Shown here in pieces: positions 14,228 to 19,850 of a stretch of DNA of 35,010 nucleotides. Position numbers and translations under genes: made by a program. Each line of letters starts with the position of its first letter. Positions within the stretch are counted from its first letter, which is position 1. Origin of the DNA: Promethearchaeia archaeon (GTDB taxonomy: Archaea; Asgardarchaeota; Lokiarchaeia; Sigyniarchaeales; SOKP01); the NCBI GenBank assembly GCA_029856155.1, contig JAHQWL010000054.1, forward strand, positions 1 to 35,010, given 5' to 3'. The notes beneath the pieces are model-generated. The model had not been told where the DNA came from and searched no databases. It saw only the letters and a list, made by a program, of their open reading frames with translations.

Positions 14228-14485
14228 ATGAGAATTTCAGTTGAAGATTCGAGAACTGGTAAATTAATTAAATTGGATGTTAAAAATCATCATCAAATTG
14301 AAAGAATAGTTGATATAATTATAAAACATATGGGTATTATAAGTGCAGAACAACGTTCATATACTCTTGTCCTCAAAGACCAAGAGTTACCGAACACTAT
14401 AACTATTGAGGATGCTGTTCACAAATTTGGACTACAGGAAAATGATAAGTTAATTCTATGGGCCAAGGTTATTGGTGGGTCCTAA
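14228..14485 (+). CDS. Ubiquitin-like modifier (pro-form, C-terminal GG-S)
   Basis: 85 aa beta-grasp pattern: MRISVE..GKLIKLDV, YTLV, FGLQENDKLILWAKVIGGS; GAAGGTG upstream; next to E2/E1/JAMM. Confidence 0.88.
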   Translation: MRISVEDSRTGKLIKLDVKNHHQIERIVDIIIKHMGIISAEQRSYTLVLKDQELPNTITIEDAVHKFGLQENDKLILWAKVIGGS

Positions 14486-14512
14486 TTTAACAATAAACTT
14501 TACAAGTTTTAC

Positions 14513-15073
14513 CTAATCCTCAATAATAAGAACATCCTCATCTTCTTCCTCTTTTTCCTCAACTTTTTCCTCAGTAATATTGAGTTCTTCCTTAATATCA
14601 GCCATCGATTTTTTTTTGAACAATTCAGATGCCTCTAAACATGGGGGATAATTAAGAGGATCATCAGGGTTGGGATTTTCTACTAAGCTTTTAAGGGCTT
14701 TAGCAGTTGTTTCTAAATCAGATAATCGGGACCATTTTTTTAAGACGTTAAGACAAATGTATCCCGTACCAGAACCCCCAGGAGAAGTTTGAACAGGATG
14801 AATATTAGGATGAAAAATATTTGTTAACCAAGAAAAATCAATTCCACCGGGATATGGAAATGACCGATTTATTTTTAAGAAAATTCGGTGAGATCTTTGG
14901 GGCACTAATTCTTCCTTATTTTTGATGAGACCTAATGCTTTAATATTTATTGTGAATTCAATACTAGTTTCTCCTTTAATAATTGTATTTTCTTCTAACA
15001 CATTTAATTTATTAATATTCATGAGTTCATTTTCAATTCTATCTTTCCAAATTTCATAAGGCAGTTCTGGCAA
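14513..15073 (-). CDS. Ubiquitin-conjugating enzyme E2 (UBC)
   Basis: FPY, IFHPNI, GYICLNVLKKWS catalytic Cys, LVENPNPDDPLN; TTG start preceded by GAGGGGT. Confidence 0.93.
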   Translation of the reverse strand: MPELPYEIWKDRIENELMNINKLNVLEENTIIKGETSIEFTINIKALGLIKNKEELVPQRSHRIFLKINRSFPYPGGIDFSWLTNIFHPNIHPVQTSPGGSGTGYICLNVLKKWSRLSDLETTAKALKSLVENPNPDDPLNYPPCLEASELFKKKSMADIKEELNITEEKVEEKEEEDEDVLIIED

Positions 15074-15194
15074 TTCTTTTACCCCTCTATATCATTTTTA
15101 AAAATTAAATCATAATTATTATTGATTTTTTGTTTATTATTTTTTATGTTTTTATTATTTTTTAAATTTCAATATTTTATTTACATAGAACTAC

Positions 15195-16079
15195 TCAATT
15201 TCTTTTATCGTAAGAACATGTCCAACAATCGGGATTCTTCAACTTCTCAACAACCCTAAATGTATTTAATAATCCATTATAATTTAGTTGTTTACCAATC
15301 AAAGGTTTACCTATATAAGAATTCCAATTACCATGTTCTTTAAAATAATCAATTCCTAAGATAAATTTTAGTACTTGCTGTGATTGTAGACCACCAATAA
15401 TTGAGGTTGTTGTTATAATTGTTGCTATCTTTGCAATTGTCTCACCGTCTACACCTTGAATTTCTTGACCGGTGCATGAAAATTTTTTCCACATTAAATC
15501 AAGGTCAGAATTAGAAATACTACATTGTAGACATGCTGCATCTTTTTCTTCGGAATAAACTGCTTGAATACTACCAAAGAACTCTTCAATTCCCGAATCT
15601 ACAAAAGGAACTCCATAGAAGTATGCATAGTTATTAGCTTGTAATCTCGCTTCGACATTGTCGAGACATGAACAAATAACATCAGATTTTTGGTAGAGAC
15701 TTTTATCAATATCATTTAAATCCTTTTTAATGGCTACAATTTCTGTATCAGGATTTAATTCTTCGCATGCATTTTTTACCACATCAACTTTATAATCTTT
15801 ATTTTGAGCACTCTGACGGTTAAATAACACACATCGATTTAGATTTGAAATATCTATGAAATCATAATCGATTAATATCAATTTTCCAATACCTGTTAAC
15901 ACTAAATTTTTCACTACTTCATTTCCAGTAGCACCGACACCAATAACCATAACTGTTGCATTTGAAATTTTGTTTTGATCCCACCCACTAATACGTTTTT
16001 GACGATCAAACTTATCCGTGTCTATGGATTCAAGACCATAAACTTTTAATTCCTCAGTTTTTTTTTCTCTACTTGGCAT
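15195..16079 (-). CDS. Ubiquitin-activating enzyme E1 (ThiF/UBA family)
   Basis: FDRQKRI, GVGATG, DYDFIDISNLNR, CLDN, Zn sites CLQC/CWTC, putative catalytic KFSC. Confidence 0.93.
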   Translation of the reverse strand: MPSREKKTEELKVYGLESIDTDKFDRQKRISGWDQNKISNATVMVIGVGATGNEVVKNLVLTGIGKLILIDYDFIDISNLNRCVLFNRQSAQNKDYKVDVVKNACEELNPDTEIVAIKKDLNDIDKSLYQKSDVICSCLDNVEARLQANNYAYFYGVPFVDSGIEEFFGSIQAVYSEEKDAACLQCSISNSDLDLMWKKFSCTGQEIQGVDGETIAKIATIITTTSIIGGLQSQQVLKFILGIDYFKEHGNWNSYIGKPLIGKQLNYNGLLNTFRVVEKLKNPDCWTCSYDKRN

Positions 16080-16098
16080 TTATATGATATTTGCAAGG

Positions 16099-17525: not shown

Positions 17526-17664
17526 AACAGAATTTTAATTTTCTCTAACGATAAATAAATTCTTATTTTTGACTTTAATTTTCCATATGTTTTTTATAAA
17601 TATATGTAATATATTTTCGAATACCTTAGATATGTAATCTTCTTATTTTTGAACATAAACTCTT

Positions 17665-18561
17665 TTAAACTTGCTTACTTTTTATTTTTTCTACGATTGA
17701 AATTCTTAACATTTCACTAATTATCTCAAAAATCTTGTCTTTAGCATCTCTTTTTATTGCACAGAAACCATATGTTTGAATTCCAAACATTTCTTCTATC
17801 TTTTCTGGTTCATATGATGTACTCTGTAAATCTTGGAAATTGGCTATAAGATAAAAATCGGCTTTCTTAACTTTGTTTTCTAATTGAGAGAATAATCTTT
17901 GGGTTCTACCTAAATTACTTGCACCTGAATTCGTAACTATGCAAATTACATCAACTGAATCTAATAAAGGTCTGTGAATTTTTGAATTTTTAATTAAATC
18001 TTCCAAATCAAATTCGCGTAAAACAACCTCATTTATTGTTTTTAAATTGGATAAAGGAATTGACTTCTGTATAATTTCATTTAAATCCTCATCTAATTCT
18101 AAAACAGTCTCTCCTTCAAAAAGATTGATAATAGTCGTTTTCCCAACGCCTAGTTCCCCTACCAATAATATTTTTGGTGGTATGAAAATATACTCTTCAG
18201 CAAATTCATCGAATACTTCAAATCTTCCTGTTTCACATTTCCAATTTTTTAACTCATCGTAAAATTGTTTAATAAACTCATTTTTCATTAATTCTAATTT
18301 TTCTTGCGCTTCTTCTTCAGGATCATCTATATCTGTAACAATAATGAACATACATAACTTTTCTTCATCATAAGTATACACAAAATTGAAGTTTCTGAAA
18401 TTCAAAGATTTTATCTCCCCTCCGCCAATTTCCTTTGCAATAGTACTAATAGCTGTGAGGAATCCGCTTACTAAATCGTAGTCTATGTCATCACTTCCCA
18501 CAAAGGTTTTTGAATAACAAAGTACTCCATTAGCCATAATTATGAGTATTTTAGATATCAT
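17665..18561 (-). CDS. Longin-domain + degenerate small GTPase fusion (copy 2)
   Basis: LVSGFLTAI longin signature; GELGVGKTT, ANFQD, FCAI. Confidence 0.85.
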   Translation of the reverse strand: MISKILIIMANGVLCYSKTFVGSDDIDYDLVSGFLTAISTIAKEIGGGEIKSLNFRNFNFVYTYDEEKLCMFIIVTDIDDPEEEAQEKLELMKNEFIKQFYDELKNWKCETGRFEVFDEFAEEYIFIPPKILLVGELGVGKTTIINLFEGETVLELDEDLNEIIQKSIPLSNLKTINEVVLREFDLEDLIKNSKIHRPLLDSVDVICIVTNSGASNLGRTQRLFSQLENKVKKADFYLIANFQDLQSTSYEPEKIEEMFGIQTYGFCAIKRDAKDKIFEIISEMLRISIVEKIKSKQV

Positions 18562-18685
18562 TTTAGATTTCTAATTTTATTCTATTAATAATTAATTTAA
18601 TAATAGTTTGGTTGATTATTTAAAATAACTGTGCGGAATTAATATAGTGATTATTCGTTTTATATTTATATAATGGTGAAATTAT

Positions 18686-18859
18686 ATGAATGAGGAAAAA
18701 AACGATTCAGAATCAAATGATCAAGATCATCCAACAATAATATCTTCTGAAGATCGAGAAATTAAGCAACAGAAGCCCCCGAATGATAAGATTATAAATT
18801 ACAAAATCGTAGAAGAGAAAGATAATTCAAATTCAAAAGATAATCAAGCAATAAATTGA
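18686..18859 (+). CDS. Small (57 aa) hydrophilic hypothetical protein
   Basis: ATG..TGA ORF MNEEKNDSESNDQDHPTIISSEDREIKQQKPPNDKIINYKIVEEKDNSNSKDNQAIN, with GGTGA SD-like site and TTTATATA upstream. Confidence 0.45.
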   Translation: MNEEKNDSESNDQDHPTIISSEDREIKQQKPPNDKIINYKIVEEKDNSNSKDNQAIN

Positions 18860-18902
18860 ACAATACTAATTCATTTTATAAATTTTTAAAAATACTAAAA
18901 AG

Positions 18903-19850
18903 TTAGTCTACTATAATAATAATATCATCATCTTTTTCTCTTTTGGAATCATCAAGTACTTTATTGGAAACATTTTGTTTTTTAAGAATTGATTTACTAA
19001 CAATTTCTTTTATAATTTCATAAATTTTTTTTTCAGCTTTTTTTGCTATTGCTGAAATACCATAAGTTTTTACTCGAAAAAATTCTTCAACTTTTTCAGG
19101 TACATGAGATGTATTAAAGTCTTGGAAGTTAGCGATTACGTAAAAATCTGCCTTTTTTATTTTTGGTTCTATTAATGAGAATAACCTGTGAGTTTTACGT
19201 AAATTCATTCCTCCGGAATTAGTAACAAAACAGATAATATCAACAGAATCTAAAATGTGCTTATAATTATTTATATTATCAACTAAATCTTCCAAGTCAA
19301 ATTCCCTAACAATAATCTCATGAATATCTTTAAAATCCGGCAAAGGAATTGATTTTTGTACAATGTCGTTCATGTCTTCATCTAATTTTAAAATTGTTTC
19401 TCCGGGAAATAAATCCATAATAGTTGATTTACCTACTCCTGCTTGCCCTACTAATAATATTTTAGGAGGAATAAAAATGCTTTTCTCAACAAATTCATTA
19501 AAGCTTTCAAATTTAGCAGTATCATAATCCCAATTTTTTAAATCATCACGATATCTTTTAAAAAACTCCATTTTAAGGAATTCTAATTTATGTCTTACGT
19601 CTTCTTCCGGATCATCAATATCAGCTACTATTATGAATATCCAATTTTTCTCATAATCGAAAGTATAGACAATGTTGAAATTTCTAAAGTGTATGGATCT
19701 TATTTCCCCACCTCCAATCTCTTTTGCTACATTATTAATTGCTGTGAGAAATCCACTTATAAAATCTTCATCTATATTTTCATCGTTAATGAATGATTTT
19801 GAATAACATAGAACTCCACTAGATTTTATAATTAAGATTTTCTCTATCAT
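18903..19850 (-). CDS. Longin-domain + degenerate small GTPase fusion (copy 3)
   Basis: FISGFLTAI; GQAGVGKST, ANFQD, ISAI; acidic tail DDDIIIIVD. Confidence 0.85.
   Translation of the reverse strand: MIEKILIIKSSGVLCYSKSFINDENIDEDFISGFLTAINNVAKEIGGGEIRSIHFRNFNIVYTFDYEKNWIFIIVADIDDPEEDVRHKLEFLKMEFFKRYRDDLKNWDYDTAKFESFNEFVEKSIFIPPKILLVGQAGVGKSTIMDLFPGETILKLDEDMNDIVQKSIPLPDFKDIHEIIVREFDLEDLVDNINNYKHILDSVDIICFVTNSGGMNLRKTHRLFSLIEPKIKKADFYVIANFQDFNTSHVPEKVEEFFRVKTYGISAIAKKAEKKIYEIIKEIVSKSILKKQNVSNKVLDDSKREKDDDIIIIVD

Follow-up and report, generated by a model that had tools for sequence, protein, structure and literature searches.

The window analyzed here is an entire contig (C54, 35,010 bp) of an Asgard metagenome-assembled genome (MAG; 4.1 Mb, ~30% G+C; hereafter G000), and it carries a cassette in which three genes for longin-GTPase (LG) proteins lead into a complete set of genes for conjugation of a ubiquitin-like modifier (Ubl). 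We found that these LG proteins have lost the switch elements of their G domain, are maintained by selection and are co-inherited with the conjugation genes across related genomes. With a probability of roughly 0.5, we read LG1, LG2 and LG3 as dedicated, non-catalytic and non-switching docking or adaptor subunits of a lineage-specific Ubl system. On the plus strand, the Ubl precursor (14228-14485) ends in VIGG-S, and the remaining six genes are on the minus strand, namely an E2 of UBC fold (14513-15073), a minimal ThiF/MoeB-type E1 adenylation domain with two CxxC pairs (15195-16079), an Rpn11-like JAMM/MPN+ metalloprotease (16099-16599), LG1 (16605-17525), LG2 (17665-18561) and LG3 (18903-19850). 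Each LG protein consists of a longin domain and a switch-dead G domain, which is Arf-like. LG1 lies 5 bp upstream of the JAMM gene, JAMM and E1 are separated by 19 bp, E1 and E2 by 121 bp, and the Ubl gene converges on the E2 gene across 27 bp. The gaps between the paralogues are 139 bp (LG2/LG1) and 341 bp (LG3/LG2), and an oligo-T run is located 3′ of LG3. A first-pass annotation of the window had described three minus-strand longin-GTPase paralogues leading into JAMM, E1 and E2 with a convergent Ubl gene; all seven open reading frames (ORFs) and the gaps that it gave are exact. Near-identical proteins in the databases come from MAGs labelled Promethearchaeota or Hermodarchaeota, and the DNA sequencing runs containing matching sequence are marine-sediment and salt-marsh metagenomes.

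We surveyed the gene neighborhood in 135 species genomes of the family, G000 included, where an E1 of at least 65% identity was taken as orthologous. An orthologous E1 was present in 70 genomes, and an LG-family gene was found within 3.5 kb of it in 61 of these 70, mostly on the same strand with JAMM between the two. The LG-JAMM gap ranged from -1 to 83 bp and was 5-25 bp in most genomes. Eight of the E1-bearing genomes were uninformative (the contig ends beside JAMM or E1, or the assembly is fragmented), and in one (G241) LG is replaced by two large proteins that have the helical and nitrilase part of a fused architecture described below. When presence alone was counted, 67 genomes had both LG and E1, three had only E1 (all at contig ends), two had only LG, and 63 had neither. 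An independently annotated metagenome contig has the same arrangement, LG-JAB-ThiF-UQ_con, and in addition genes of 85 aa (convergent), 332 aa and 86 aa. Since the synteny is conserved in about 60 genomes, chance linkage is excluded. In the sister family, orthologues of Ubl and E2 are scattered, yet LG-JAMM-E1 is still adjacent; specifically, one closed genome has Ubl and E2 at 0.04 and 1.44 Mb and LG-JAMM-E1 at 2.50 Mb, where the E1 match beside LG-JAMM is a 113-aa N-terminal fragment only. Of all the observations, this adjacency despite the dispersal of Ubl and E2 speaks most strongly for a tie of LG to JAMM and E1. The first-pass annotation had called for such a survey and had named linkage unique to this genome among the grounds for giving up its proposal of a dedicated system, in which the longin-GTPases would be substrates, scaffolds or E3-like adaptors. 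The survey was clearly positive, as the LG subfamily co-localizes with the Ubl/E1/E2/JAMM set in both the family and the sister family, and the dedicated system is well supported by this co-occurrence and co-localization. Co-inheritance in about 60 related genomes makes it almost certain that the LG proteins function within the conjugation system.

In a maximum-likelihood tree, every linked LG fell into one clade (support 100/100, stem 0.88). LG1, LG2 and LG3, which share 52-62% mutual identity, each have their own orthologues in the closest relative G005 and in G008, so that the triplication predates these species. LG2 is the paralogue nearest to the single-copy orthologues of other genomes, and LG1 is the fastest-evolving one (branch length 0.5). 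Ratios of nonsynonymous to synonymous substitution rates (dN/dS) were 0.15-0.16 for LG1, 0.07-0.08 for LG2 and 0.10-0.13 for LG3, in the same range as those of E1, E2 and JAMM; judged by these ratios, the three genes are under purifying selection and not decaying. The LG family as a whole has 346 representatives among 1.8 billion proteins, all restricted to Asgard archaea. In G005, a 95-aa ORF lies between the LG3-type and LG2-type genes (L013:9850-10137) and matches only the C-terminal 60 residues of LG3; it is a leftover of another LG duplication.

The fold of the LG proteins was examined with an AlphaFold2 (AF2) model of LG2 (pLDDT 87.9, pTM 0.84), which has two domains. A VIA structure search matched residues 1-129 to the longin domain of VAMP7 (Z 15.0, root-mean-square deviation (rmsd) 2.1, 117 aligned residues), with further matches to Sec22 (Z 14.2) and CPLANE (Z 14.3; Rab23-Fuzzy-Inturned was among the matches), and matched residues 128-292 to Arf1 (Z 17.2, rmsd 2.6, 151 aligned). 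The model shows the beta-beta-alpha-beta-beta-beta-alpha(-alpha) sandwich of the longin fold, with the DSSP order E2-9, E14-19, H28-45, E51-55, E58-65, E70-77, H82-105 and H111-125. At the sequence level, Pfam matches to a Fuzzy longin domain (Fuz_longin_1) were obtained for eight of 36 LG-family members (best 2e-8). For the longin part, a feature search of a protein atlas reached a score of 0.83, to be taken as a lead and no more, and NCBIfam returned nothing specific.

We next compared the nucleotide-binding motifs across the same 36 sequences. The Walker A P-loop GxxGVGK[ST] is kept in LG1-3, and its residues G135, G140 and K141 are invariant, as are N241, Q243 and D244 of the guanine-specificity motif; the SA/CA motif is kept as well. 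The Lys of NKxD is replaced by Phe (NFQD) in the window's family, whereas members from the sister family retain NKQD. On the other hand, the switch-I Thr is lost in LG1-3 and in all cassette-linked members, where G-E/D-T-V/I-L-E/K-L-D-D/E-D (L-E-L-D-E-D) is found instead, and DxxGQ is likewise lost in these proteins, with R-E-F/V-D/N-L-E-D in its place (given for LG1-3 also as E-F/V-D/N-L/F-E/H-D). The LG proteins therefore have the fold and the G1 P-loop of Ras-superfamily GTPases and lack G2, G3 and the catalytic Gln. Distant members of the LG family are canonical (PT, WDxAGQE, NKQD) and have Pfam matches to Arf (down to 2e-22), Roc and Ras, and matches to Gtr1_RagA were confined to such distant members (12/36). 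Because the P-loop, N-x-Q-D and SA are kept while the switch-I Thr and DxxGQ are lost, LG1-3 are probably nucleotide-binding yet non-switching proteins and not empty shells. The term pseudo-GTPase used in the first-pass annotation accordingly holds for the switch-I Thr and DxxGQ and not for the P-loop, N-F-Q-D and SA, which are kept.

The four conjugation proteins are recognizable by their own signatures, and the Pfam scores of E2 (UQ_con, 40.8 bits, 2e-10), E1 (ThiF, 168 bits, 2e-49) and JAMM (JAB, 44.8 bits, 1e-11) all exceed the gathering cut-offs. The 85-aa Ubl has no Pfam match; a profile of 11 orthologues aligns to residues 6-76 of ubiquitin. These orthologues have a mean identity of 83% and an invariant VIGG followed by 0-4 variable residues, and the nonsynonymous rate (dN) against G005 is 0. 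The E2 carries HPN...Cys, its PDB matches are eukaryotic E2s, and its C-terminal acidic-(I/V/L)4-acidic tail (acidic-IIII-DD) is kept in 12/12 orthologues. LG3 has a similar ending; LG3 itself ends in DDDIIIIVD, and LG3-type paralogues in G000, G005 and G008 end in DDDIIII(V/Y)VD. The top PDB matches of the E1 are the active adenylation domain of Uba1, MoeB and UBA5. In JAMM, the motif E..HSH-x7-S-x2-D is intact with the catalytic E, HSH, S and D invariant, and the top PDB match is the Rpn11-like protein of Caldiarchaeum (6fjv, 8.5e-15), followed by Rpn11 and CSN5; its predicted role is maturation and deconjugation of the Ubl. The G000 genome holds two further E1/E2 sets, a canonical cluster on contig C44 (55-59.5 kb) with ubiquitin-family genes beside E1 and E2, and an additional E1/E2 pair on contig C35 (18.7-22.1 kb), which also has a distant longin-GTPase paralogue at 3468-4154. 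Counted with these two, the cassette brings the E1/E2 sets of the genome to three; it is the most divergent of them and a specialized system.

The switch-dead G domain occurs in a range of architectures, which are longin-G (~300 aa), longin-G-helical-CN_hydrolase (~875 aa), G-helical (~340 aa), G-CN_hydrolase and G-TIR. Depending on the genome, the gene immediately upstream of JAMM can be of any of the first three types. The longin-G-helical-CN_hydrolase form comprises 33 protein clusters; all of the 33 longer clusters are CN_hydrolase fusions, and none is a fusion to JAMM, E1, E2 or ubiquitin (Ub). The fused CN_hydrolase domain scores 33-39 bits against a Pfam cut-off of 23.2, and the Glu-Lys-Cys triad of nitrilases (FPE, EKH, ICRD) is conserved in five aligned fused proteins. 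Against the PDB, this domain gave a single weak match, 7elf (E 0.002), which does not suffice to place it in a branch of the superfamily; among PADLOC models, the domain matches best the RT-nitrilase model for defence (1.8e-14). The helical domain was considered as a possibly PCI-like partner of MPN proteins; for it, VIA gave only the generic TPR-like structure 3gw4 (Z 13.3, rmsd 7.0), which is within helical-repeat noise. G-TIR fusions were found in G252 (L040:7231-8121, inside the Ubl cassette; TIR_2 8e-14) and in P0135 (not near a cassette; TIR_2 3e-15), and a RING finger is found fused to one of the distant canonical longin-GTPases. In G241, the two proteins that adjoin JAMM-E1-E2 (L037:3-7021) are 1016 and 1277 aa long, with the nitrilase part in the longer one, and have an uncharacterized N-terminal region of ~700 aa in place of longin-G. 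G000 itself encodes, on contig C50 (L027:820-3441), a fourth LG protein closely related to LG1-3, to which a TPR-like helical region and a nitrilase domain with intact E-K-C are fused; downstream of it are small membrane proteins and a 241-aa RING protein. On the same contig (L027:9671-11338), an AMP-binding enzyme is present as two adjacent same-strand ORFs of 299 and 246 aa, which may be a frameshift or a split gene.

Among the relatives compared, the general gene order is a co-directional RING-TM86-Ubl array converging on E2-E1-JAMM-LG, often with a gene for a wHTH-TPR (winged helix-turn-helix and TPR) protein upstream, and the window departs from this order at the RING gene. A 3′ remnant of a C4C4 RING gene, a candidate E3, is present at 13518-13847 (+), and tblastn showed 80.6% identity to residues 240-342 of the 346-aa orthologue in G008. 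The remnant holds the last 103 codons only, with the full complement of eight Cys and without a start codon ahead of the first CxxC, and it lacks the N-terminal ~240 codons, which in the G008 orthologue encode hydrophobic transmembrane (TM) segments. In the relatives, the intact gene encodes a 300-355-aa multi-pass membrane protein with the RING as cytoplasmic tail, no trace of the RING gene was found in G005, and RING paralogues are present elsewhere in the G000 genome. An intact RING gene within the cluster, as in the ubiquitin operon, is hence found in the relatives and not in the window, and the first-pass annotation is corrected in its detail on the E3: a candidate E3, the multi-TM C4C4 RING protein, does exist in the clusters of relatives, and a truncated remnant of it in the window. 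TM86 (13874-14134, +), a small membrane protein with two TM segments, recurs between RING and Ubl in G005, G008, G003, G017, G002, G011 and G252, and it is represented by the 86-aa gene on the metagenome contig. The wHTH-wHTH-TPR protein (19919-21820, −; Pfam matches to HTH_34, MarR and TPR) has orthologues of 58-84% identity directly upstream of LG in G005, G008, G003, G017 and G252. Two paralogues of it are on the same contig (28211-30127, −, and 34039-35010, +), and of the three only the 19919-21820 copy is a conserved LG neighbor in relatives. Farther away is a canonical Ras/Rab-like small GTPase (23541-24092, +; Ras 9e-41), in which the motifs GDGRVGKT, WDIAGQ, NKCD and SAK are all present. 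Its best orthologues lie 2.6-7 kb from an LG-family gene in 12 of 18 cases, and a recurrent neighborhood with LG is only suggested by this count because the GTPase family has 5-11 copies per genome. Note that a Rab-like GTPase together with Yip1 beside Ub/UEV-Vps23 in Hodarchaeia has received one mention in the literature. No ESCRT genes were found near the cassette. A DDE transposase gene (31862-33340, +; DDE_Tnp_1, 1.3e-8) lies close to the contig end.

Of the systems known, the ubiquitin operon of Caldiarchaeum and Asgard archaea, which consists of Ub, E1, E2, a small RING protein and an Rpn11-like JAMM (PMC5654768; Asgard clusters, PMC9192718), is similar in having a Ubl with C-terminal GG and an extension, a ThiF-type E1, an HPN-Cys UBC E2, an Rpn11-like MPN+ protein and, in the window's relatives, a RING partner. 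The cassette differs from it in an obligate extra component, the switch-dead longin-GTPase family, which is unmentioned in PMC5654768 and PMC9192718. It also differs in its RING, which forms the tail of a multi-pass membrane protein, in the lack of ESCRT genes nearby, and in being a third, more divergent set beside the canonical Ub-E1-E2 of C44. Unlike Rag/Gtr proteins, where the G domain is N-terminal and a roadblock domain C-terminal, the LG proteins have the reversed order (longin 1-125, G domain 128-295). Eukaryotic longin-GTPase platforms include SR-alpha SRX/SR-beta, Mon1-Ccz1/Rab7 and CPLANE Fuzzy-Inturned/Rab23. The LG cassette resembles these, by fold only, in pairing a longin fold with an Arf/Rab-like G domain and in having a Rab-like GTPase encoded nearby; it is unlike them in that one chain contains both domains, in that its G domain has degenerated and in that its partner in the genome is a machine for Ubl conjugation. 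Among bacteria, the Bil and CBASS type II (Cap2 E1-E2/Cap3 JAB) systems, which use conjugation in defence, likewise combine E1, E2 and JAB (with or without Ubl) with a variable neighboring effector or partner. In the window, however, separate genes encode E1 and E2, the E2 belongs to the UQ_con family of eukaryotic type, and the cassette is inherited vertically and has housekeeping genes on its flanks.

In the adaptor reading that we prefer, the G domain would bind nucleotide without switching or hydrolysis, and its former switch face (G-E/D-T-V/I-L-E/K-L-D-D/E-D) would be a constitutive docking surface for the JAMM-E1 core. The appended domain would then give targeting or output, which is longin here and a nitrilase-type amidohydrolase, TIR or TPR-like helices elsewhere. 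Through its longin domain, LG may be connected both with the Rab-like GTPase encoded nearby and with the membrane, in which the multi-TM RING E3 and also the 2-TM protein would reside; we infer the membrane association from the presence of these two proteins in the gene set. The acidic-IIII tail of LG3 probably uses the docking site of E2 on Ubl or E1, as a competitor or as a Ubl receptor. This reading draws on the conserved linkage, the single clade of linked LGs, their folds and motif states, the low dN/dS, the exchange of domains around a constant G domain upstream of JAMM, the tail that E2 and LG3 share, the RING fusion of a distant family member and the two other E1/E2 sets of the genome. 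In a more specific form of this idea, which is at this stage doubtful, LG, JAMM and E1 would form a physical complex, the Arf-like domain, loaded with nucleotide yet non-switching, would act at the membrane as a gate for the activation and removal of Ubl, and the longin domain would read the Rab-like GTPase.

Several observations weigh against the adaptor reading. With T-runs after LG3 and with the 139-bp and 341-bp gaps, which possibly bear promoters, LG1 is the only LG gene that clearly forms an operon with JAMM. The clade of linked LGs also contains three members that are not linked (P0125, P0126 and G000's own fused copy on C50). The cassette is absent from 65 of the 135 family genomes, some of them 100% complete, and is for this reason accessory, which also fits a conflict system. 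The genomes surveyed are kin, so that the counts are not independent events and overstate independence. Gene order alone cannot tell an adaptor from a substrate or a co-regulated bystander.

It is possible, if unlikely, that the LG proteins and their effector-fused relatives are instead preferred substrates, to which E1 and E2, with or without RING, attach Ubl and from which JAMM removes it, a cycle that would turn them on or off in place of the GTP switch that they have lost. The Helarchaeal Ub cascade sets a precedent, as it mono-ubiquitylates UEV-Vps23 encoded within the same cluster (bioRxiv 10.1101/2023.07.25.550441). Loss of the nucleotide switch under continuing purifying selection would fit a new mode of regulation, and the fused nitrilase and TIR domains are kinds of activity that are often held in check. 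However, the genes that LG adjoins most tightly and consistently are JAMM and E1 rather than E2 or RING, and the E2-like tail of LG3 suggests mimicry of the machinery rather than a passive target.

Another explanation, which we consider improbable, assigns the cassette to the conflict or anti-virus systems, as an Asgard counterpart of bacterial Bil or CBASS type II, with the G-domain proteins as sensor or adaptor modules bearing variable effectors. The Ubl/E2/E1/JAB set with no functional E3 in the window, the accessory distribution, and the LG tandem duplications, remnants and domain shuffling around a conserved core are in line with it, as are the G domain-TIR fusion inside the G252 cassette and the PADLOC match of the nitrilase domain. 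The PADLOC matches to the cassette itself are at domain level only (E1 1.5e-18, JAB 2e-7), however, and E2, Ubl and LG1-3 are without a match. Synteny and sequence are vertically inherited and strongly conserved (as the Ubl identity indicates), the flanks are housekeeping genes (mutase, L10e, CoA ligase) with no defence island, and the second TIR fusion examined (P0135) is away from any cassette. The weakest explanation, that the LG proteins are independent trafficking-type regulators, such as partners of Rab-like GTPases, which merely share a neighborhood or regulon with the Ubl genes, draws on LG3-type copies that are found together with the best Ras-like orthologues though E1 is on another contig (G015 C70, G262 C9, G220 C76), on the unlinked clade members and on intergenic gaps that permit separate transcription of LG2 and LG3, and we hold it to be very improbable in view of an almost perfect agreement in presence and absence with the E1 orthologue (both in 67 genomes, neither in 63), the adjacency of LG-JAMM-E1 even where Ubl and E2 are dispersed, the short LG-JAMM gaps in most genomes and the tail motif that LG3 shares with E2.

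Membrane trafficking in eukaryotes rests on ubiquitin tagging and on longin/small-GTPase switches as two of its pillars. Asgard Ub clusters and longin-GTPase fusions have been described in the literature, separately, and our literature search found no paper on the LG-Ubl cassette linkage or on the pseudo-GTPase clade, which agrees with the statement of the first-pass annotation that this arrangement was not known to be described. Apparent additions to what has been reported are the series of G-domain architectures, the LG-JAMM-E1 adjacency that persists in the sister family, the tail common to E2 and LG3, the decayed RING gene and the Ras-like neighbor. In a large group of Asgard archaea, a minimal yet complete Ubl system has a degenerate longin-GTPase as its obligate partner in the genome, and this linkage makes it testable by reconstitution how ubiquitin tagging and small-GTPase switches came to be connected. 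A conserved pseudo-GTPase clade with swappable effector domains also informs the evolution of pseudo-enzymes and possible archaeal Ubl-based conflict systems. If the gating LG-JAMM-E1 complex were true, the control of small-GTPase trafficking by ubiquitin would have a forerunner among prokaryotes, in which the output domains (longin, amidohydrolase, TIR) are interchangeable.

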